In this document: positions 4,434 through 16,171 of the stretch, piece after piece
Layout of the letters: every line of letters starts with the position of its first letter
How positions within the stretch are numbered: the first letter of the stretch is position 1
DNA from: a virus
Lineage: Duplodnaviria > Caudoviricetes
Strand: one strand, 5' to 3'
Virus record (IMG/VR): IMGVR_UViG_3300044453_000120
Location: 1 to 53,002 of that record
Length of the DNA stretch: 53,002 nucleotides
Notes under the pieces: model-generated
Database searches by the model: none
Seen by the model: only the letters and a program-made list of their open reading frames with translations
Told to the model about the DNA's origin: nothing
Translations under genes and position numbers: made by a program

Positions 4434-5657
4434 TTAAGCACCACACGAAAAATCATACAATCTCGGCTGGGTCTCATTCTCAAACACCAATTTCTGCGCT
4501 TGCAAATGGTCCGCCCAAAGCTGCCAAGCGGCCCGCCTACGTTCAGCGCCCACGTTAAGCCCAAGCGACTCAACATAGGTTTTTTGGACTGGGGTTAATT
4601 CATGGTTTAACATCAACTCAGCAACCATCGAGTCAATGCCCAGCTCTAGCCAGCGAACGCGGCAAAGCTTGCGAAAGTCATGCGATGTATAAGCGCCTTT
4701 GCTTATTTCATGAACCAACTCATTGGCAGTGTTCTGATCTATAAAAGTACGGCTTTTAGAACTCGGAAACATTAAGTCCCCTCTGTAACCACTTTTAACC
4801 TGATTTTGATGGGCTTGGATCAGCAAATTAAAGGCGTAGTCACTGAGATAAATAACGTGTTGTTTGGTTTTTGTAACGTCCGCTGGGAGCGTCAAAGTTT
4901 TATGGTTAGGGTCTATAAATGACCATTGTGACTTTCGAGTCTCACCAATGCGGGTGCCGTGAAGTAACATTAATTGACACAGTAAAGAAGCCGACCCCAA
5001 CACATGGCTGGCTATTAGAGGTTCATCTATTTTTTTTATTTTTGAAGGCTTAGGGAGAATTAGCGCGTCAATAATGTCTCTGAACTTAATGCCTGCAAGC
5101 GGATCATGATTTAACTTACCCGATTTTACTGCTTGAGACAGAGCCCGTTTTAACAGTTGGAAAATCTGGCGAACCGTGCTCGGTTTATATTTTTTTTGTA
5201 ATGGCCAAAGCAAAACGCTTTCTAATACCGACTTTTTAAACTGAATTAAGGGGATATCTTTCAATACTGGGATCAAGTGTTTACTAAGTAGTGATTTCAC
5301 CGAGCGCTTTCTATCATCTGACAACGACGCATCATTTTGACTACGCTCAAGATACCATTTTAAAAGCTGGCCAAGGGTTTCAAAATTGTCGGTCACAATT
5401 GGGGCATCAACAGCAAAACGCAATAACAAAGCAGGTACATCTTTTAACACCATCGCGCTAGGCACAGCGGGCCAATGTGCCAGCTTATGCCACTCTTTAC
5501 CCTGCACCAAGCCTCGTAAATACCAAGTACCACTCTCGCGCTTTTTATGAAAGCGCAAATAAAGCGGGTAGCGAGTATCTTTAAGCCTCGTTATCTCGTT
5601 GTTATTGAGCTGCGCCTTGATCACCGCGTCAGATATTTTTACTTGTTTTGTCGCCAC
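4434..5657 (-). CDS. Tyrosine recombinase / integrase family protein
   Basis: Arm-type N-terminus; catalytic motifs GTRIGE (R), KTK, HDFR (HxxR), LNH and KTY (Y). Confidence 0.88.
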   Translation of the reverse strand: MATKQVKISDAVIKAQLNNNEITRLKDTRYPLYLRFHKKRESGTWYLRGLVQGKEWHKLAHWPAVPSAMVLKDVPALLLRFAVDAPIVTDNFETLGQLLKWYLERSQNDASLSDDRKRSVKSLLSKHLIPVLKDIPLIQFKKSVLESVLLWPLQKKYKPSTVRQIFQLLKRALSQAVKSGKLNHDPLAGIKFRDIIDALILPKPSKIKKIDEPLIASHVLGSASLLCQLMLLHGTRIGETRKSQWSFIDPNHKTLTLPADVTKTKQHVIYLSDYAFNLLIQAHQNQVKSGYRGDLMFPSSKSRTFIDQNTANELVHEISKGAYTSHDFRKLCRVRWLELGIDSMVAELMLNHELTPVQKTYVESLGLNVGAERRRAAWQLWADHLQAQKLVFENETQPRLYDFSCGA

Positions 5658-7015: not shown

Positions 7016-7636
7016 ATGACACAGGCTAAAGAGAGCCCCAAAATATCGCGCGCAACAATTTTAGGTCAGCGCATCAATGAGCATCGTAAAGCACTTGGCC
7101 TAAAACAAGGTGAATTCGCCAAGCTCATCGGCTTGAAACAAAATAGCGTCAGCATGATCGAGCAAGCCGAGCGTACGCCAGCGATTGATAAAATTCAGCT
7201 TATTGCCGAAACATTAAACGTGCCTTTTGAATGGCTTGTGGGTGTAACACACGAAATAAACGGCGACACACTTCATCACGCACTAAATACGAATAGCGAA
7301 TTAGCCATTAATCGCGAACTATTAGAAAAAAACGGCAGTAAAACAAATCAACTTATTGAGCACAAAGTGAAAGATGCCGCAATGTCTCCACACATTCCAC
7401 AAAATAGCACCGCGGTTATTGATATGCAGAAAAAACAGATCAACACCGAATCTGTATACTTAATAGAAAAAGACGAGCAAGCAACGCTTCGCCGCGTTCG
7501 CAAAGAATTTGATAATACATACACGCTTATCGCTACAAACACAGAGTACAGAGACCTTGCACTCACTGAGCAAGAATTTAAAAATATTAAGGTGATCGGC
7601 AAGTTAGTCGGCCATTTCACATGGGCGGAAAATTAA
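7016..7636 (+). CDS. cI: CI-like repressor (XRE HTH plus S24-like C-terminal domain lacking the catalytic dyad)
   Basis: HTH RKALGLKQGEFAKLIGLKQNSVSMIE. C-domain has VKDAAMSPHI and ATLRRV where GDSM and TLKR are expected. Confidence 0.85.
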   Translation: MTQAKESPKISRATILGQRINEHRKALGLKQGEFAKLIGLKQNSVSMIEQAERTPAIDKIQLIAETLNVPFEWLVGVTHEINGDTLHHALNTNSELAINRELLEKNGSKTNQLIEHKVKDAAMSPHIPQNSTAVIDMQKKQINTESVYLIEKDEQATLRRVRKEFDNTYTLIATNTEYRDLALTEQEFKNIKVIGKLVGHFTWAEN

Positions 7637-9359: not shown

Positions 9360-9500
9360 TTGACATCCTCTCCCACCTCGCTTCGCGCCCGACAAGTCGG
9401 GAAAGGAAGGAGATTCCTGTTTCATAGCGTATCGCTTTAAATTCAAGAGAATCTAAAGTCTTATTTACGCTCCACAGGCTAACACTGCCTGCCCGACAGC
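9340..9500 (-). ncRNA. TnpB omega/reRNA (right-end scaffold plus flank-derived guide TTATAGCTTGGTGCGGCATG)
   Basis: Structured IS right end overlapping the tnpB 3' end and ending in TCAA; guide inferred from known TnpB biology; 5' boundary approximate. Confidence 0.65.
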
Positions 9501-10676
9501 TTTAATATTCAGTGCCGCATTTAGATCGCGGTCTAGCTCGCTAGAACATTCAGGACACGACCATTTGCGGATATGTAACGGTAAGGAATCGACAACGTGA
9601 CCGCAGCAATTACAGCGTTTAGAGCTTGGATACCACTTATCAATCTGAATTACAGTTCTACCGTACCATTCAGCTTTGTAAGTCAGCTGGCGCACGAATT
9701 CACCCCAGTTGGCATCGCTAATTGCTTTAGCAAGTTTTCGATTCTTAACCATATTTTTTACGCTCAGACTTTCACAGCTAATCACTTGATTATCGTTTAT
9801 CAATTGGGAAGTCAGTTTGTGGGTGAAGTCGCGACGACAATCAGCAATCTTTGCTTGAACGCGAGCGACTTTCTTCCTGGCCTTGTGGAAGTTAGAAGAG
9901 CCTTTCTTCTTCTTCGATAGTACACGTTGAGCCTTAGCTAGCTTACTAGCGTAACGCTTGGTGTAACGGGGATTACCAGACTTGAAACCGTTGGAGGTAA
10001 TAACAAGGTCAGTCAAACCTAAATCAATACCGACTGTATTTTTACTAATCGGTAGTGTTTTAGGTTCGAAGCGACATAGACAAGAAACAAAGTAGCGTCC
10101 AGCACTGTCTTTGCTAATTGTGACTGTGGTTGGTTCGCTAGGCAGCTCACGCGACCAGCGTACATTAAGAGGCTGCTTAGATTTAGCCATGAACAACTGA
10201 CCATCAACATATTTGAATGCGGCTTTGGTTAGTTGGGCGCTTTGTTTTGAACGCTTCTTTTTGAAAGCCGGGTATTTCGCTCGACCTTCAAAGAAATTTT
10301 TAAACGCAGTTTGTTGGTTTCTGATTGCTTGCTGTAGAGGAACGCTAGAAACATCATTAAGCCAAGAAAACTCAGGGTTTTTCTTGAGCTCTGTTAGGTA
10401 GCTTGATGCTTTGTTGTAGTTAATCTTGATTTGCTCATTATAGTAAGCATCGGTGCGCCAACGAAGAATAGAGTTGTAAACAAATCGCGTACAGCCAAAC
10501 GTCTGCTCAAGTAGGGTTACTTGCTCAGGTGTTGGGTAGATGCGGTATTTGTAAGCTCCCTCTTTCATAACTTACACAATAAACATCATTTGTGTAAGGG
10601 TCAACAACTATCGTTAGCGCGTTGCGCTAAAACCTTACATCCCCGACCTAAAGGACGGGGTTTTTCGGCTCAAATG
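9360..10676 (-). mobile_element. IS200/IS605-family (IS1341-type, tnpB-only) element inserted 3' of TTTAT
   Basis: Left-end hairpin CCCCGACC-TAAA-GGACGGGG at 10641-10660; right end GGAGAGGATGTCAA ending at 9360; no target duplication; excision restores the flanking ORF. Confidence 0.9.
9465..10568 (-). CDS. tnpB: RNA-guided endonuclease TnpB
   Basis: YKYRIYPT N-terminus; RuvC GIDLG (D), CESL (E), DRDLNAA (D); CxxC..CxxC Zn finger. Confidence 0.95.
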   Translation of the reverse strand: MKEGAYKYRIYPTPEQVTLLEQTFGCTRFVYNSILRWRTDAYYNEQIKINYNKASSYLTELKKNPEFSWLNDVSSVPLQQAIRNQQTAFKNFFEGRAKYPAFKKKRSKQSAQLTKAAFKYVDGQLFMAKSKQPLNVRWSRELPSEPTTVTISKDSAGRYFVSCLCRFEPKTLPISKNTVGIDLGLTDLVITSNGFKSGNPRYTKRYASKLAKAQRVLSKKKKGSSNFHKARKKVARVQAKIADCRRDFTHKLTSQLINDNQVISCESLSVKNMVKNRKLAKAISDANWGEFVRQLTYKAEWYGRTVIQIDKWYPSSKRCNCCGHVVDSLPLHIRKWSCPECSSELDRDLNAALNIKAVGQAVLACGA

Positions 10677-11372: not shown

Positions 11373-12020
11373 ATGATCATAATAATCGGTGGTGAAAAAG
11401 GCGGACCAGGTAAAAGCACGGTTGCACAAAACCTCAGTGCATACTTAACCCTTGAGAAAAAGGTAGACAATATTTTAATTGACGCTGATCCACAGGGTAC
11501 AACTGAGGATTGGATTGATGATAGAAATAACAACCCCGATGTAAAACAAATTCATTGCGCAAAAAAAACAGGGCGGATCCACACCGCGTTACAAGATTTT
11601 GAGCAACGATATGGCATTGTGGTTGTTGACGTAGGCGGGCGTGATAACGAAGGCTTGAGATCGGCAATGGCTGTTGCTGACTTAATCGTCATTCCGCTTA
11701 GACCAAAGCGCAGAGACTTAAAAACACTTACACACATGAGCGAGCTGGTTGTACAGGCCGGTGCTTTAAACACAAAACTAAAAGCACGCACCTTGATCAC
11801 CCAATGCCCAACACTGCCAAACCAAGCAACAAGAATATTAGAGGCAAAAGAAGCTTGCGAATCATTTGGCTTGCTCTCACTTAACGCAATAACATACACA
11901 CGCAATGTGTATGACGATATAGAAGAAAATGGCTTGAGTGTATTTGAGTCATCAGATAAAAAAGCAATTGATGAAATCACCAAGATTGGTGAGGAAATTT
12001 TTAAAGTATTAGAGGTATAA
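11373..12020 (+). CDS. parA: ParA-family Walker ATPase (short type Ib)
   Basis: GGEKGGPGKST, LIDADPQ, VVVDVGG; no N-terminal HTH. Confidence 0.92.
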   Translation: MIIIIGGEKGGPGKSTVAQNLSAYLTLEKKVDNILIDADPQGTTEDWIDDRNNNPDVKQIHCAKKTGRIHTALQDFEQRYGIVVVDVGGRDNEGLRSAMAVADLIVIPLRPKRRDLKTLTHMSELVVQAGALNTKLKARTLITQCPTLPNQATRILEAKEACESFGLLSLNAITYTRNVYDDIEENGLSVFESSDKKAIDEITKIGEEIFKVLEV

Positions 12021-12021
12021 C

Positions 12022-12291
12022 ATGGGATTGGGTGACGGATTAAAAAAACAGCAAGCACCAAAAAAAGATGCAAACTCCAAGGCTGTAGATGAATTTATTG
12101 AAGGGGCGGCCGAACGTCAAGGCATTATGCCAAAGTTAGACCCAGATGCCAGCCCAACAAAATCATTCACATTCCCGCTGAATGAATATGAGCTAAAGCA
12201 ATTACAAGACTTAAGTGACGAAACTGACATTTCAATGCGCAAACTGGCACGACGGCTGATTGTGAAAGGCTTAGTAAATAAAGATTATTAA
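12022..12291 (+). CDS. Partition partner protein (ParG-like, RHH)
   Basis: Directly follows parA; flexible N-terminus, then KSFTFPL beta-strand and two helices. Confidence 0.7.
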   Translation: MGLGDGLKKQQAPKKDANSKAVDEFIEGAAERQGIMPKLDPDASPTKSFTFPLNEYELKQLQDLSDETDISMRKLARRLIVKGLVNKDY

Positions 12292-12368
12292 ATAAAGTTT
12301 TAAAACAGAACTACTATAGAATTATTTTAAAATTAATTTGGTTTTATTCTAATTCTATTGATAAGAAG

Positions 12369-12402
12369 TGTAGTCGGCTCGCTTCGACCCAAGCCGACTA
12401 CA
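12369..12402. other. Stem-loop between parAB and small ORF
   Basis: TGTAGTCGGCT ... AGCCGACTACA, an 11-bp perfect stem with no T-tract. Confidence 0.6.
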
Positions 12403-12430
12403 TGCAACATAAACACTTTAAGGAATACTT

Positions 12431-12580
12431 ATGTTACATACACATACTAACACACTAGACAAAACCCCCGCAGCACAATTACGTGACGCACCAATTAATG
12501 AGCTCATAGAGTGGATAGCAACTAAACCGATGAAGACGCAGAAAGGATTATTTAACTTTCTTCGTCAAGCGCCTCAGTGA
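12431..12580 (+). CDS. 49-aa small protein resembling the C-terminal helix of XRE regulator 13083..13433 (not in ORF track)
   Basis: AAGGA RBS; MLHTHTNTLDKTPAAQLRDAPINELIEWIATKPMKTQKGLFNFLRQAPQ. Confidence 0.65.
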   Translation: MLHTHTNTLDKTPAAQLRDAPINELIEWIATKPMKTQKGLFNFLRQAPQ

Positions 12581-12713
12581 TCAACTTAGCGATATGACTA
12601 GCAGCACAAGCCGCGTGATCTTCCCCAAACTCAGTAGATAAGGCGGATAAATCAAGCGTTTCGGCTAGAGCTTGCTTTAATTTTGCCAGCTGATGTTCAT
12701 TTATAGTCTTCAT
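12552..12713 (-). CDS. 53-aa small acidic protein (not in ORF track)
   Basis: MKTINEHQLAKLKQALAETLDLSALSTEFGEDHAACAASHIAKLITEALDEES; ATGA overlap with the upstream ORF. Confidence 0.6.
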   Translation of the reverse strand: MKTINEHQLAKLKQALAETLDLSALSTEFGEDHAACAASHIAKLITEALDEES

Positions 12714-12937
12714 TGGCTGGCCTCACGTTCTTTAACTAATTTTTTTGCGTTTACAGTTAACAAAACTTGTAATACCTCAAATTCAGCTTGGGCCTTGTTT
12801 TTTTCAGTTTGTGTGCATGCATTGTTTAGTTCGTGTTTTGCTTTGTTAAATGCACGATTTAAACAACGTCGTTCTATAAAACGATTGAGACTATATGCCT
12901 TTAAGCAAAAAATAATTATGAAGAGTAGGAGTATCAT
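12710..12937 (-). CDS. Small protein with N-terminal TM anchor
   Basis: MILLLFIIIFCL; AAGGA RBS; divergent from the XRE gene. Confidence 0.6.
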   Translation of the reverse strand: MILLLFIIIFCLKAYSLNRFIERRCLNRAFNKAKHELNNACTQTEKNKAQAEFEVLQVLLTVNAKKLVKEREASQ

Positions 12938-13082
12938 AAGTCGTCCTTTTTGTTAATAACAGCAAACTTCATGATTGCTGAGCAATACATGCAATATAAC
13001 AAGGCTTAGATGCAAAAAAATGCAATTATGTTAATGAATACAGTTTTTTTTCAATTTTTTTACAATTATACTTGTTTAAAAA

Positions 13083-13433
13083 TTGGCAAGAATGGATGCG
13101 GAGTTGAATGTGGCAGCAGAAGTAAACGACGAATCACGCGCAACGTCACGTGCAATTACAAGAATGCGACTTGATCTTGGGCTCAATAAAAGCAAATTAG
13201 CAAAAAAGCTAAAAGTATCAAATGGTACAATCGGAAACTGGGAAAATGAAGAACTTTCTAATTTGCCGAATGCAACACAATTCAAGGCATTACAAGAGAT
13301 GTGTAAGAAAAAAGACAGTACATTGTTTACGGCTCAATCTTTTAGTTTTTTCATAGAAGCGTTTGAGAGAATGCCGGATAAAACACAAAAAACGTTACTC
13401 GATGCACTACAAAAGTTAAGAGGAGATAAATAA
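13083..13433 (+). CDS. XRE-family HTH regulator
   Basis: RLDLGLNKSKLAKKLKVSNGTIGNWE HTH plus a short C-terminal helical domain. Confidence 0.85.
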   Translation: MARMDAELNVAAEVNDESRATSRAITRMRLDLGLNKSKLAKKLKVSNGTIGNWENEELSNLPNATQFKALQEMCKKKDSTLFTAQSFSFFIEAFERMPDKTQKTLLDALQKLRGDK

Positions 13434-13434
13434 A

Positions 13435-14040
13435 ATGGATATGCTTTTAGACTTTTTTAGAACAATGCAAAGTTATAATATTTTGGCCGAATATATGGGC
13501 TTTATATTCTTTAGTACTTTACTCATCACTTTAGTATGTAATCTACACGACACACAACGCATTTGGATTGTGTGCGTTTTTTTTAGCTTTAGTTTAATTG
13601 ACTTATTTGTATACAGAATACTTTTACCTCATGATTTATTGATCAGGCAAAGTGTCTATATCACAACAGACTTACTCATTATTTATTTATTGCAAAATCG
13701 TGTAATCGTATGCCATCAGATTTATGCTGTTTTGGAACCAAAAAATAATAATAAGTTTTTTGTAAGGATGCTTAAAGATATGGATTACACAAAACAGGAA
13801 TATGCAATACGTTCTGTGTTACTTACAGGTGTGTTAGTAAACATGTTGCTAATTATAGAGCACTGTATTAGACACCCTGAATTTTTTGGGTTTGCTGAAA
13901 ATACCAATTTACAACAAATCCAGTGGATATTTAATGCTTACCCCACAGTAAAGACAGTGCTTACATTTTTAGTGATACTGGGGTTAATCTCAATGACCAT
14001 TGATGGTATTGCACAAAGACGTATAAAAGATGCTTTTTAA
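13435..14040 (+). CDS. Multi-pass membrane protein (about 5 TM)
   Basis: Several hydrophobic segments; starts 1 bp after the XRE stop. Confidence 0.8.
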   Translation: MDMLLDFFRTMQSYNILAEYMGFIFFSTLLITLVCNLHDTQRIWIVCVFFSFSLIDLFVYRILLPHDLLIRQSVYITTDLLIIYLLQNRVIVCHQIYAVLEPKNNNKFFVRMLKDMDYTKQEYAIRSVLLTGVLVNMLLIIEHCIRHPEFFGFAENTNLQQIQWIFNAYPTVKTVLTFLVILGLISMTIDGIAQRRIKDAF

Positions 14041-14104
14041 TTTGCTTTTAAGGAACAAATAAGGAAAATATTTATTACACCCTTTTAAAAATACGAGGAC
14101 AAAA

Positions 14105-14227
14105 ATGATAGAGTTATCTAAAGAAGCATCAAAAGCAGTATCTGGTGGAAATACAGGCACTGGCGATCAAGGTGGTAGACCACTTGCCTTAAGAGCAGTG
14201 ATTACTTATAACAAAAAGAAACCATAA
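14105..14227 (+). CDS. 40-aa precursor peptide with double-glycine-type leader (not in ORF track)
   Basis: GAGG RBS; MIELSKEASKAVSGG|NTGTGDQGGRPLALRAVITYNKKKP; followed at once by a terminator. Confidence 0.75.
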   Translation: MIELSKEASKAVSGGNTGTGDQGGRPLALRAVITYNKKKP

Positions 14228-14235
14228 TTTATGAT

Positions 14236-14263
14236 AAAAAGCCGCTTTGATTAGCGGCTTTTT
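14236..14263 (+). terminator. Intrinsic (bidirectional) terminator
   Basis: AAAAAGCCGCT-TTGATT-AGCGGCTTTTT. Confidence 0.85.
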
Positions 14264-14374
14264 ATTGCCTGTATAATCCATTTTAGGGTAAACCCTAAAC
14301 ACATAAAATATTAACGTTTAAAAAGTTAATAACTTTACACTCTAGCCAATGATTTTAACTCTAAACTGGATTGT

Positions 14375-15088
14375 TTGATTTTGGCTAAAAATTACGCTTA
14401 TATCCGCATTAGTGATCATAACAAACAAGATTCCACAGGCCAGCGTGACCGCATTAATAAATATGCCGATGAACATGGGCTATATATTAGTAAATGGTTT
14501 GAATACGAACTGAGCGGCAGTAAAACAAACAAAGCGCAAAGGGGACTAATTGAGATCATCGAACTGCTTAAAAAAGGGGATCGGTTACTCGTAAATGATA
14601 TAGAACGACTTGGCCGTGATTCTGTCAGTGACATTCTAGAGATTATCACTAGAGTGATAAATAACGGCGCTGAATTGCACTTTTGTTTAAACGCTGACGT
14701 TCTTACCCCCGATCACAAAAACGATTTGGCCACCTTTTTTATCACCATCGGCAAAGCCTTTGCTGCACAAGACTTTAGCAAGCAACGCAGTTTAAAAGCC
14801 AAAGCGGCCGCTGAACGTAGAAAAAAAGCCAGCTTACCAACGGGCAGGGCAAAGGGGGCAATCATCACCAGTAAGCTAGATAAGCACGAAAATCAGGTGT
14901 TGTTTTGGTTATCCCAAGACGTTACCAAAAGCGAGATAGCGCGTAAGCTCAGTGTATCGCCAACAACGTTAGATAATTGGCTCAATAAACGCGATGAGTT
15001 GATTTGCCAAGCCCGCGACAGAGACATTTATCAAAAGGGCATGAGCATCACCGAAGTAAAGTATTTTTTAAAAACTATACCGCTTTAG
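14375..15088 (+). CDS. Serine recombinase (resolvase/invertase family)
   Basis: YAYIRIS (catalytic Ser), ELSGS, KKGDRLLVNDIERLGR; C-terminal HTH KSEIARKLSVSPTTL. Confidence 0.92.
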   Translation: MILAKNYAYIRISDHNKQDSTGQRDRINKYADEHGLYISKWFEYELSGSKTNKAQRGLIEIIELLKKGDRLLVNDIERLGRDSVSDILEIITRVINNGAELHFCLNADVLTPDHKNDLATFFITIGKAFAAQDFSKQRSLKAKAAAERRKKASLPTGRAKGAIITSKLDKHENQVLFWLSQDVTKSEIARKLSVSPTTLDNWLNKRDELICQARDRDIYQKGMSITEVKYFLKTIPL

Positions 15089-15362
15089 CGGTGAGCTCTT
15101 GATAAATCTGCTTTGCTTTTTCTCTGCCAGCATCGGTAAGCTGCCATGCTATTTTTAACGAGGGGTTTCTAAATAAATTAATTAAGCCTGATTCTTTTAA
15201 CTTATGACAGCTTGGTCGAAAGTTGCGATCAGCCACTTCATAATTAAAGGCTTTATTAACTAACTTATATAAGTCCATACTTGGTATTGGTCGTTGACCT
15301 TGTTGCAACTCAATAGCGTATAAGTAGAATAAAGTGTGTTTTTGAACTTTTGAAATACGCAT
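15075..15362 (-). CDS. Winged-helix-like hypothetical protein
   Basis: NFRPSCHKLKESGLI...WQLTDAGREKA wHTH pattern. Confidence 0.6.
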   Translation of the reverse strand: MRISKVQKHTLFYLYAIELQQGQRPIPSMDLYKLVNKAFNYEVADRNFRPSCHKLKESGLINLFRNPSLKIAWQLTDAGREKAKQIYQELTAKAV

Positions 15363-15370
15363 TAAATCCC

Positions 15371-15589
15371 TTATTCATGTGTCACATGATTAATAAACTC
15401 TTCCCACAAATTTTTACGCCTAAGTAAGCACTCAATGGCCAATGCTGTTTGTGTTGAGCAAGTTTTATCACTATTGGGGCTCTCTAAGTTCGTTACATTG
15501 CGTTTAGTTGTCCAACCTAATTGCTTAGCAAACTCAGTTTGACTTAGCTTTAATAATGTTCTGGCAACTAACACATCGTTACTTCTCAT
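15371..15589 (-). CDS. XRE-family HTH protein
   Basis: ARTLLKLSQTEFAKQLGW. Confidence 0.75.
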   Translation of the reverse strand: MRSNDVLVARTLLKLSQTEFAKQLGWTTKRNVTNLESPNSDKTCSTQTALAIECLLRRKNLWEEFINHVTHE

Positions 15590-15845
15590 AGAATTTATTC
15601 ACTGCTTCTTTAAATTGTTCTGCAAATTCTTGTGCAGCTTGATCGTCACTATTCGCGATAGAATCAAAAGCACCGGCTAAATTTACAATAGAGAAGCGAT
15701 CACCCGCGTGTATATTTGCCAATGCAACCGGGTCAGCACCTTGTTCTACCTTTATATTTAATTTATCTAGTAGGCCACGTGCGGCTTGTCCATTACTTTT
15801 AGCCGCTAATACACTTTGATCAGCAGAATCTATAAGAAAATACAT
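15579..15845 (-). CDS. Hypothetical protein
   Basis: ORF in the ardC operon. Confidence 0.6.
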   Translation of the reverse strand: MYFLIDSADQSVLAAKSNGQAARGLLDKLNIKVEQGADPVALANIHAGDRFSIVNLAGAFDSIANSDDQAAQEFAEQFKEAVNKFYEK

Positions 15846-15886
15846 ATATTACCCTTAATGAGTTAAGGGCCTGTTGGCCCTTTTTT

Positions 15887-16171
15887 TTAAATCTCTTCAG
15901 TGTGGTCAAAATTGAAAACATAAAGCGCTTTCATAACTGTGCGGGTTTGCTTTTCGTCTTTTTTAATTTCAACGTTCTCCAACTTTTTTTCGCATACCAT
16001 GAATATTTTACAACCCTTAGCCCCTTTCTTTACTTTGCGCCCCTTTTCCTTCCATTGCTTAAAGCCAGCCCATTCAACCGAGCTTAGCTCGAATGCTTCT
16101 CTATGCTCTTCTAGGTGTTTTTGGTTAGATACTGAATAGAAAGCGTTAGTTACTGAGTTGCGATTTTCCAT
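15887..16171 (-). CDS. ArdC-like ssDNA-binding N-terminal domain protein
   Basis: Y...NQ..L, WAGFKQWKEKGRKVKKGAKG, YVFN motifs; lacks the metalloprotease domain. Confidence 0.8.
   Translation of the reverse strand: MENRNSVTNAFYSVSNQKHLEEHREAFELSSVEWAGFKQWKEKGRKVKKGAKGCKIFMVCEKKLENVEIKKDEKQTRTVMKALYVFNFDHTEEI

Follow-up and report, generated by a model that had tools for sequence, protein, structure and literature searches.

A temperate marine phage carries a three-gene cassette, consisting of a small XRE-family DNA-binding regulator, a membrane protein of an unnamed family and a short peptide with a double-glycine export leader. The cassette recurs across Pseudoalteromonas and looks like an undescribed peptide-sensing circuit in Gram-negative bacteria. 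The window analysed here is the whole 53,002-nucleotide stretch of virus record IMGVR_UViG_3300044453_000120. An earlier note, based on the sequence alone, had described a tight operon in this window of an XRE gene, a protein with about five transmembrane (TM) segments and a 40-aa ORF with its own GAGG ribosome-binding site, closed by a strong terminator. That observation proved correct on re-examination, because all four elements lie where the note had placed them. Its interpretation, that a secreted peptide is sensed or neutralised by the membrane protein and relayed to the regulator in an arbitrium-analogous system, is only partly supported.

The cassette and its reality as a gene unit

The features of the region are as follows.

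12552..12937, minus strand: two divergently transcribed small ORFs (75 aa with one N-terminal hydrophobic segment, 12710-12937; 53 aa, 12552-12713); possible regulated output
13011..13053, no strand assigned: conserved inverted repeat TGCAAAAAAA / TTTTTTTTCA, arms 23 nt apart; candidate operator in the divergent promoter region
13025..13054, minus strand: promoter-like site (TTGAAA, 18 nt, CATAAT; 10 of 12) facing the divergent small ORFs
13067..13072, plus strand: -10-like hexamer TATACT (TATAAT in both sister phages), with no good -35, upstream of the operon
13083..13433, plus strand: XRE-family HTH regulator; likely true start GTG 13110 (107 aa) behind GGAG 13100-13103
13435..14040, plus strand: membrane protein of an unnamed family (201 aa, 5 predicted TM), with an E-H-x-x-R-H-P motif (residues 142-148) at the predicted periplasmic end of TM4 and a K/R-rich loop (87-122) predicted to be cytoplasmic
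14095..14098, plus strand: GAGG ribosome-binding site of the peptide gene, 6 nt before the ATG
14105..14149, plus strand: double-glycine leader, 15 codons (M-I-E-L-S-K-E-A-S-K-A-V-S-G-G)
14150..14227, plus strand: predicted mature peptide (25 aa, net charge +4, GRAVY -0.92) plus stop codon; the N-terminal G-T-G-D-Q-G-G-x-P block is conserved and the tail varies
14233..14266, plus strand: intrinsic-terminator hairpin that closes the operon

The regulator ORF matches Pfam HTH_3 at E 1.5e-5 (25.3 bits against a cut-off of 23). Alignment with two sister phages, here called L002 and L008, shows a conserved GGAG followed by the GTG at 13110, and the real start is therefore probably at that codon. 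The ATG of the membrane protein lies one base after the XRE stop codon, and the two genes are translationally coupled. A hydropathy analysis finds five TM segments in the membrane protein, and its AlphaFold2 model is an all-helical bundle with a mean pLDDT of 85.8. A simple terminator scan reported 0 sites, but folding of 14225-14275 gives a 14-bp hairpin of -19.8 kcal/mol (z -5.7, with 0 of 200 shuffles as stable) followed by T-rich sequence. As the note had said, no C39 peptidase domain is encoded in the 53-kb record.

The small ORF is a real gene. Its ribosome-binding site, ATG, frame, stop and hairpin are kept in 2 of 2 sister phages, whose TerL proteins are 96% and 92% identical to that of the window, and third-position changes run through the invariant G-T-G-D-x-G-G codons. 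The GAGG is invariant in the three-phage alignment. Residues 1-15 end in S-G-G, with G14 and G15 invariant in 4 of 4 aligned peptides, and the L4-x9-GG spacing and the V at -4 are kept in all 3 phage alleles. This is the [IL]-x9-G[GAS] spacing of the class II microcin signal motif (PMC12219008), although the R at position 2 of that motif is I in the window and K in L002. Double-glycine leaders also show a -4/-7/-12/-15 periodicity; position -7 is S in the window, I in L008 and A in L002. The leader periodicity and the exact 15-residue length are kept in all 3 phage alleles and also at one further locus (L068), whereas other loci have longer leaders. No Pfam or NCBIfam family, including the bacteriocin-signal models, hits any of the 3 phage peptides at E <= 1, but such short models are insensitive.

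The control region is less certain. The intergenic region is 75% identical on average across the three phages, and the arms and spacing of the inverted repeat occur in all three; the region is AT-rich, however, so chance is not excluded, and operator function is inferred from sequence alone. The minus-strand promoter-like site is weak by itself, because the consensus scan found 8 sites in the region against 8.9 expected from shuffles, but it lies within the conserved block. The -10-like hexamer is likewise an inference only. The two divergent ORFs are kept in both sister phages (64% and 74% identity in L008; 35% for the 75-aa ORF in L002) and have no family match, and their link to the cassette is inferred from position only.

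The membrane protein belongs to a family with 13 representatives among 1.84 billion proteins, in which R89, E142, R146, H147, Y169 and G191 are invariant. It matches no Pfam, PHROG, NCBIfam or PADLOC family, and a PDB sequence-profile search returned nothing. The best Foldseek hit to the model has E 0.8, and the best VIA-align hit (Z 9.7, rmsd 3.0 over 127 residues) is to de novo helical bundles, within the range expected for any helical bundle. The ESM Atlas returned unnamed Pseudomonadota clusters (score at most 0.89) and structural look-alikes that include the TM parts of diguanylate cyclases (TM 0.57), which are leads only. A CPBP/Abi-type immunity protease and a zincin-like HExxH site were considered from the E-H-x-x-R-H motif, but were rejected because there is no family match and the histidines are lost in distant members. 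A likeness of the Gly/Asp-rich peptide core to RaxX-type sulfated peptides and to RTX repeats was also rejected, because the motifs do not line up.

Distribution and variation in Pseudoalteromonas

The membrane family occurs in 24 of 140 Pseudoalteromonas genomes, with several paralogous loci per genome, against 2 of 401 genomes in an order-wide sample that includes the query genome. An XRE gene lies directly upstream on the same strand or is fused in 29 of 29 loci with enough flank; four further loci end at contig edges. The note had proposed as a test that a conserved double-glycine-leader ORF should lie next to homologues of the membrane protein, and this comes out positive in 24 of 33 loci by a strict motif and in 31 of 33 by eye. 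The strict motif gives 35 matches in 37,021 bp next to the membrane gene, against 3 in 198,267 bp elsewhere in the same loci, with 0.56 expected, an enrichment of about 60-fold. The loci are partly orthologous, and so these counts are not independent events. Loci hold up to three tandem peptide genes with variable tails, and some precursors (loci L004, L063 and L064) hold 2-3 leader-core units in one frame.

Other searches found little. DNA and tblastn searches of the region and the membrane protein against phage and plasmid collections gave no match, and single-protein scans of viral and metagenome contigs gave none. A search with a 5-sequence alignment found only the L008 record, and a peptide search of 5.8 billion proteins found only the window's own entry. 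A DNA pattern for GG-x-x-G-T-G-D-[QR]-G-G in viral contigs gave 34 stretches, of which only two were relevant (L028, which is L008, and a further locus, L038); the rest were glycine-rich frames of unrelated proteins.

In some homologues the regulator and the membrane domain are one polypeptide. Seven proteins of 297-314 aa carry HTH_3 at about residues 17-70 plus the membrane domain: two at locus L067 and one at L073, and, among the wider loci, three at L077 and two at L078. NCBI holds them as HTH proteins of P. xiamenensis, in 4 clusters at 43-100% identity. The AlphaFold2 model of the fused form puts five TM helices between the HTH and the E-N-x-x-R-H loop, which places that loop in the periplasm. 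Fused paralogues keep near-identical HTH domains and divergent TM domains, but arrays with 2-3 fused paralogues hold only one peptide gene.

The cassette also shows specificity-like variation. In one pair of loci, L048 and L049, the XRE is 100% identical, while the peptide genes number 3 against 1 with unrelated tails and the membrane protein is 35-65% identical over columns 1-100 and 85-100% over columns 101-200. Between the window and L008 the flanks are 64-97% identical but the trio only 39, 42 and 60%. Against the P. peptidolytica relative, however, the trio (38, 50 and 64% identity) is no more diverged than the genome median of 56% over 50 ORFs, and so "hypervariable" holds for the L008 and the L048/L049 comparisons only.

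No exporter is encoded in the phage, but one is available in trans. C39 domains occur in 102 of 140 genomes. All 24 genomes with the membrane family have one at E <= 3.6e-32, against 55 of the other 116 at E <= 1e-30 (Fisher P 1.8e-7), although this co-occurrence is confounded by phylogeny, because the large-genome clade carries both. The C39 protein of P. peptidolytica is a full peptidase-containing ABC transporter (PCAT) with an HlyD-type partner. No PCAT or MFP lies next to any locus seen, the nearest C39 hits on the same contig being about 30-46 kb away.

A proposed peptide-sensing circuit and its alternatives

The analysis itself establishes that the XRE gene, the membrane-protein gene and one or more double-glycine-leader peptide genes form a near-obligate trio in Pseudoalteromonas chromosomes and in this phage lineage, that the XRE and membrane domains are one polypeptide in some homologues, and that the peptide genes and the N-terminal half of the membrane protein can diverge together while the XRE stays identical. 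From these data we infer, with moderate confidence, a self-contained peptide-sensing circuit built as a split transmembrane transcription regulator. Expression, cleavage, export, binding and any phenotype are all inferred in this model. The 40-aa precursor would be cleaved after G15 and exported by a host PCAT, and the 25-aa hydrophilic product would be bound on the periplasmic face of the membrane protein. The conserved Gly-rich/Asp-Pro start of the peptide would meet the conserved E-x-x-x-R-H loop, and the variable tail would meet the variable N-terminal helices. The membrane protein would then hold or release the XRE regulator through its cytoplasmic loop, changing transcription from the conserved divergent promoter region at 12940-13110. 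The phage copy would be one allele of a host-type module, and candidates for what it controls are the two divergent small ORFs, the operon itself, or host genes. A predicted complex of the membrane protein with the precursor peptide (score 0.01, mark 0.32) is neither support nor evidence against.

Some data do not fit this model easily. The 107-aa XRE has no recognisable sensor domain, and no output gene is conserved outside the phage lineage. The promoter region is 75% conserved among the three phages even though their XREs are only 37-39% identical and differ in the recognition helix, which is not what a co-varying repressor and operator would show.

The main rival, which is not excluded but appears unlikely, is that the peptide is a class II microcin-like bacteriocin, exported by a host PCAT to harm competitors or cells cured of the phage, with the membrane protein as its immunity factor and the XRE regulating only the operon. 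The leader spacing, the gene order, the tandem peptide genes with variable tails, the paralogous loci, the co-variation of peptide and membrane protein, and carriage on a mobile element all fit. The membrane protein, encoded 64 nt upstream of the peptide gene, also satisfies the published working criteria for immunity proteins (adjacent, <=216 aa, TM helices; PMC12219008). In addition, a peptide with the same G-T-G-D-Q-G-G-P-P start is paired in L038 with a membrane protein that is not a detectable homologue (hhalign probability 0.2% and 0.4%), and immunity proteins are diverse in this way. However, the peptides look like signals rather than pore formers. The 26 distinct predicted mature peptides are 15-37 aa long (median 26.5), hydrophilic (median GRAVY -0.79) and often acidic; 1 of 26 has Cys, and 0 of 26 has an 11-residue stretch with hydropathy above 1.6. 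Class II microcins of the MccV type with their immunity proteins, and bacteroidetocins, resemble the cassette in the 15-residue GG signal, the adjacent small membrane protein and the dependence on a PCAT, which is inferred here. The predicted mature part in the window, however, is 25 aa and hydrophilic, not a long glycine-rich or hydrophobic toxin, an XRE is an invariable partner and is sometimes fused, and no linked PCAT or MFP is present. Verified class II microcins are described as too long for chemical synthesis (PMC12219008). Furthermore, fusion of an immunity protein to an HTH domain has no rationale under this reading, and fused paralogues share one HTH and differ in the TM part. The fusions and the hypervariable patch that spans the peptide genes and the N-terminal half of the membrane protein favour the part of the note's proposal in which the peptide is sensed and relayed to the XRE over the part in which it is neutralised.

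A second alternative, that the membrane protein is a peptide-processing or export enzyme with an AgrB-like role, is very unlikely. In this view the conserved E/R/H loop would be catalytic and the XRE would be only the operon regulator or would sense the product by another route. The size of the family members (about 190-230 aa), their 5-6 TM helices, the invariant polar residues (E142, R146, H147) and the constant adjacency to peptide genes are compatible with this idea, and a hypervariable patch spanning the peptide gene and the adjoining half of a membrane protein, next to conserved parts, recalls the agr locus of staphylococci. However, 0 of 14 family members scanned match AgrB or any peptidase family, or any shared Pfam family, at E <= 1; there are no AgrB, AgrC or AgrA homologues; and the peptides have a double-glycine leader and, in all but 1 of 26, no cysteine for a thiolactone. 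The histidines are replaced in distant members (E-R-G-F-R-K in L004), the conserved loop is predicted to be periplasmic and so on the wrong side for processing a cytoplasmic precursor, the HTH fusion points to signalling, and the leader already fits PCAT processing.

It is also doubtful that the XRE and membrane proteins form a two-gene module with another role, such as exclusion, defence, stress sensing or a toxin-antitoxin-like pair, with the small ORFs acting inside the cell or having no signalling role and the GG motif reflecting only a glycine-rich sequence. The XRE gives weak hits to antitoxin-type HTH models (MqsA, HipB, RmrA), the first two genes are translationally coupled, the cassette sits in an accessory, low-GC stretch (36% GC at 12001-16000), and in L038 the peptides sit beside a CI/Cro-like pair, where morons and exclusion genes are often found. 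Against this reading, no PADLOC model hits the membrane protein or the peptide (the XRE has only generic HTH hits), the leader is conserved, the strict motif is enriched next to the membrane gene, and all carriers have a PCAT.

Relation to known systems and significance

The closest architecture is that of transmembrane transcription regulators with an XRE-type HTH, such as BcrR, the bacitracin sensor of Enterococcus, and BreG, which is involved in bacteriocin synthesis in Lactobacillus (PMC10269533). In these proteins a cytoplasmic HTH is joined to a multi-pass membrane domain that senses an extracellular (peptide) cue without phosphorelay. The fused homologues have exactly this architecture, but in the window the two parts are separate genes, and so the window encodes a split variant rather than a member in the strict sense. 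Its membrane domain has no Pfam match, the presumed ligand is encoded in the same operon, and the hosts are Gram-negative. In the double-glycine pheromone circuits of streptococci (ComC/ComAB/ComDE, BlpC/BlpAB/BlpHR), a precursor is, as inferred here, cleaved and exported by a PCAT and a short unmodified peptide is sensed at the membrane, and peptide and sensor vary in an allele-like way. The cassette differs in having no histidine kinase or response regulator, no linked exporter, and a presumed 5-6-TM receptor coupled to an XRE HTH. A literature search found no description of this trio, although the supplementary hit lists of PMC12219008, a screen that covered Enterobacteriaceae, lay outside it.

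The arbitrium-analogous role inferred in the note is not shown. As in arbitrium (AimR-AimP-AimX) of SPbeta-like phages, a phage-borne short peptide gene lies next to an HTH regulator, with different alleles in closely related phages. However, the XRE is 107-116 aa with HTH_3 only and no TPR receptor domain, the leader is a GG leader and not a Sec signal, and a membrane partner takes the place of Opp import. The cassette is not a member of the arbitrium family. It is mainly a chromosomal Pseudoalteromonas module, the phage has a separate CI-like S24 repressor at 7016-7636, and no link to lysis or lysogeny was found. The note's term phage-plasmid is plausible, given a ParA and a stand-alone 51-kb contig in a relative, but unproven, and the record also carries a tyrosine integrase. 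It nevertheless remains possible, though unlikely, that sister phages of one lineage carry different alleles of a Gram-negative peptide quorum-sensing system, with a GG-leader autoinducer sensed by a split transmembrane XRE regulator, which lysogens or the phages themselves would use to tell "self" carriers from others and so tune phage or plasmid decisions such as maintenance, induction or exclusion. That would be an arbitrium-like channel built from entirely different parts and exported by the host's PCAT.

Secreted unmodified peptides are the classic signals of Gram-positive bacteria, whereas Proteobacteria are known for small-molecule autoinducers. If the microcin reading is right, the cassette would extend class II microcins to very short hydrophilic peptides on marine phages. 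If instead the trio works as inferred, it would be a peptide-autoinducer family native to a Gram-negative genus, read by a one-component membrane regulator rather than a kinase, with pherotype-like alleles and apparent orphan receptors. Because the system is small (three genes and a 25-aa unmodified peptide), it is directly testable and could serve as an orthogonal signalling part. The phage copies would be the first candidates for peptide communication by Gram-negative temperate phages.

The phage record and its three-gene cassette

The 53,002-bp IMG/VR virus record is complete and carries direct terminal repeats (DTR). It encodes a large terminase, a major head protein, a replication helicase, an HNH endonuclease and a DNA methyltransferase, together with the following features.

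4434-5657, tyrosine integrase
7016-7636, CI-like repressor
9465-10568, minus strand, IS-type transposase of 367 aa (phrog_506, E 5.8e-144), inside the phage between the methyltransferase block and the ParA gene
11373-12020, ParA-like ATPase; 11373-12291, ParA plus RHH pair
12001-16000, stretch of lowest G+C in the record (36.2%, against 38-48% elsewhere), covering the cassette, the resolvase and several small ORFs
14375-15088, resolvase/invertase
15075-15362, minus strand, conserved 95-aa protein (phrog_19460)
15371-15589, minus strand, second small HTH protein (72 aa, weak HTH_3); this and the preceding gene lie just downstream of the resolvase on the opposite strand

The terminase is 96% identical to that of another DTR record, of 50,380 bp (G537, the source of locus L008), and 92% identical to one on a stand-alone 51,281-bp contig of Pseudoalteromonas peptidolytica DSM 14001 (G001:C33, the source of locus L002). 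The host is therefore most likely a Pseudoalteromonas. The element is a temperate phage, and because it carries both a tyrosine integrase and a ParA plus RHH pair, integrated and plasmid-like lysogeny both look possible; maintenance as a plasmid is only a possibility on present evidence. ParA is only 26-38% identical between the sister phages.

The earlier note had described an operon of an XRE-type HTH regulator, a membrane protein and a 40-aa ORF with a double-glycine (GG) leader, closed by a strong terminator, and each of these elements is indeed present. The XRE ORF matches HTH_3, and comparison with the two sister phages reveals a conserved GGAG followed by GTG or TTG, so that the real start is probably the GTG at 13110. 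The membrane ORF begins one base after the XRE stop codon; a hydropathy analysis predicts five TM segments, and the predicted structure is a confident all-helical model (pLDDT 85.8). The 40-aa ORF has GAGG six bases before its ATG. A simple terminator scan missed the terminator, but the 14-bp hairpin at 14233-14266 is far more stable than shuffled sequences (z -5.7). The note had also stated that no C39-peptidase transporter is encoded by the element, and in agreement with this, no C39 domain was found in the record.

Several lines of evidence argue that the small ORF is a gene. Both sister phages keep an ORF at the same place behind the membrane gene (40 aa in L008, 47 aa in L002), with the same RBS, start and hairpin. 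In the protein alignment, M1, L4, S5, V12, G14, G15, G18-T-G-D21, G23, G24 and P26 are invariant, while the C-terminal tails differ. The DNA alignment shows third-position differences running through the invariant glycine, threonine and aspartate codons, which is the signature of a translated, constrained frame. The 15-residue leader has the [IL]-x9-G[GAS] spacing of class II microcin signals (PMC12219008), although no curated signal model hits it.

The 180 bp upstream of the XRE gene are 75% identical among the three phages. This region holds a -10-like TATACT or TATAAT, a minus-strand promoter-like site that faces two conserved small ORFs, and an inverted repeat, TGCAAAAAAA-N23-TTTTTTTTCA, that is present in all three phages. 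The conservation of this region, when the XREs are only 37-39% identical, does not fit simple co-variation of repressor and operator.

The membrane protein family and its partner genes

The membrane protein has no match in Pfam, PHROG, NCBIfam or PADLOC, and none of 14 family members examined shares a Pfam family. A search against PDB sequences gave no match, and fold searches gave no convincing match. An exhaustive HMMER search recovered 13 representatives among 1.84 billion proteins. The invariant residues are R89, E142, R146, H147, Y169 and G191, within the blocks T-K-Q-E-Y-A-I-R, E-H-x-x-R-H-P and M-T-x-D-G. A genome search placed the family almost wholly in Pseudoalteromonas, with 24 of 140 genomes of the genus positive, against 2 of 401 genomes in an order-wide sample, one of these being the query genome itself. 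Distant members remain recognizable (hhalign probability 95.9% for locus L004).

The association of the three genes was examined in 33 locus entries, namely the phage record itself, L002, L008, L004, L007 and L046-L073. Some of these entries are orthologues in different species, and L061 and L073 are two identical places in one genome. An XRE-type gene lies directly upstream on the same strand, or is fused, in 29 of the 29 entries with enough upstream sequence; the other four end at contig edges. Pfam confirmed the assignment in 8 of the 8 XRE-type sequences submitted.

Peptide genes were sought with a strict motif that requires a hydrophobic residue at -4, G/S/A then G, two or more further hydrophobic residues in the leader, two or more G in the next nine residues, and an x-P within twelve. 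This motif hits next to the membrane gene in 24 of 33 entries, amounting to 35 matches (some of them overlapping) in 37,021 bp, against 3 in 198,267 bp elsewhere in the same loci, with 0.56 expected near the gene. Over both strands of the whole phage record (106,004 bp) there are four matches, one of which is the peptide. By eye, seven more entries have GG-leader ORFs that miss the strict motif (L046, L060, L062, L064, L065, L066 and L071); L007 is ambiguous, and L059 lacks flanks.

The gene order is XRE, peptide(s), then membrane protein in most chromosomal loci, but XRE, membrane protein, then peptide in the phages. Up to three peptide genes occur in tandem (L047, L048). In L004 (2052-2339, minus strand), L063 and L064, two or three leader-GG-core units lie in a single reading frame, which is unusual for substrates of peptidase-containing ABC transporters (PCATs). 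The shared peptide pattern consists of a leader, GG, a Gly-rich stretch that ends in D/E-P or G-x-P, and then an unrelated tail. In L038 (850-3029), from an IMG/VR record of 36,064 bp, two GG-leader peptide genes, one with the same S-A-G-T-G-D-Q-G-G-P-P start as the family of the phage peptide, precede a 182-aa multi-TM protein. That protein is not detectably homologous to the membrane protein of the phage cassette (hhalign probability 0.2-0.4%), and the genes lie next to a CI-like HTH and a Cro-like gene.

Fused forms, predicted topology and sequence variation

In two genomes, the XRE domain and the membrane domain form one protein of 297-314 aa. HTH_3 lies at about residues 17-70, and the family HMM matches the C-terminal 170 residues. 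NCBI holds these as HTH proteins of P. xiamenensis, in four clusters at 43-100% identity, all 301-302 aa; they are therefore not ORF-calling artefacts. The chromosomal arrays L077 (7719-11902) and L078 (7270-10168) each consist of one split trio plus two or three fused XRE-membrane paralogues, but only one peptide gene, and are flanked by housekeeping-looking genes. The fused copies may be orphan receptors. Fused paralogues keep almost identical HTH domains and differ in the TM part.

The AlphaFold2 model of a fused protein (pLDDT 75.8) shows the HTH, a long linker helix that runs into TM1, and then five more TM helices, with the E-N-x-x-R-H loop following the fifth. Because the HTH must be cytoplasmic, the conserved loop is periplasmic in this model. 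This agrees with the positive-inside pattern of the phage protein, in which the K/R-rich loop 87-122 and the C-tail are predicted to lie inside.

Variation within the trio was examined in a comparison of loci L048 and L049. The XREs are 100% identical, whereas the peptide genes differ (three against one, with unrelated tails) and the membrane proteins are 35-65% identical over alignment columns 1-100 but 85-100% over columns 101-200. A single hypervariable patch thus covers the peptide genes and the adjoining N-terminal half of the membrane protein. Peptide identities from the comparison that gave the XRE values were left out as unreliable, because other ORFs had passed the filter. Between the phage record and L008, the resolvase is 97% identical, the upstream small ORFs 64-83% and the terminase 96%, while the XRE is 39%, the membrane protein 42% and the peptide 60%. 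Against this pattern, when the comparison is made with the P. peptidolytica element, the trio (38, 50 and 64%) is close to the genome median of 56% over 50 ORFs.

Predicted peptides, export and interpretation

A total of 26 distinct mature peptides were predicted, two of which are multi-unit read-throughs of 69 and 76 aa. The median length is 26.5 aa and the median GRAVY -0.79; one of 26 contains Cys, and none has an 11-residue stretch with hydropathy above 1.6. The product of the phage gene would be 25 aa with net charge +4. These peptides are unlike the long, glycine-rich or hydrophobic class II microcins. A microcin with its immunity protein nevertheless remains a possible reading of the cassette, since it explains the self-contained trio and the tandem variable peptides, but it explains neither the fusions nor the peptide chemistry.

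C39 domains occur in 102 of 140 Pseudoalteromonas genomes. All 24 carriers of the membrane family have one at E <= 3.6e-32, against 55 of the other 116 genomes at E <= 1e-30 (Fisher P 1.8e-7), although phylogeny confounds this comparison. No PCAT lies next to any trio examined; the nearest on the same contig are about 30-46 kb away. The only C39 hit of P. peptidolytica (L045 6549-12864, G001:C14) is a full PCAT with C39, ABC membrane and ABC ATPase domains. It lies behind an HlyD-type gene and ahead of a 385-aa ORF with no family, and these are followed by a His_kinase (PF06580, LytS/YehU-type) gene and a response-regulator receiver gene. This looks like a second, kinase-based circuit linked to peptide export.

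The earlier note interpreted the cassette as a secreted peptide that is sensed or neutralised by the membrane protein and relayed to the XRE regulator, in a communication system analogous to arbitrium or a microcin plus immunity pair; this interpretation is partly supported. Nothing was found that ties the cassette to the lysogeny switch of the phage, and on the tests applied it is not a member of RRNPP/arbitrium, agr or the known defence systems. Literature searches, which did not extend to supplementary files, found no description of the trio. The analysis itself shows the association of the three genes, the existence of fused forms, and the divergence of peptide genes together with the N-terminal half of the membrane protein beside an unchanged XRE; cleavage and export of the peptide, its sensing by the membrane protein, and the transmission of a signal to the XRE are inferred. 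The known class that the cassette would work like is the XRE-type transmembrane regulators, BcrR and BreG (PMC10269533). The GG-peptide pheromone circuits of streptococci are a second system that it would resemble in operation. The evidence fits best a peptide-sensing circuit in which the membrane protein is the sensor half, and the XRE the output half, of a split transmembrane transcription regulator, whose ligand would be the operon's own PCAT-exported peptide.
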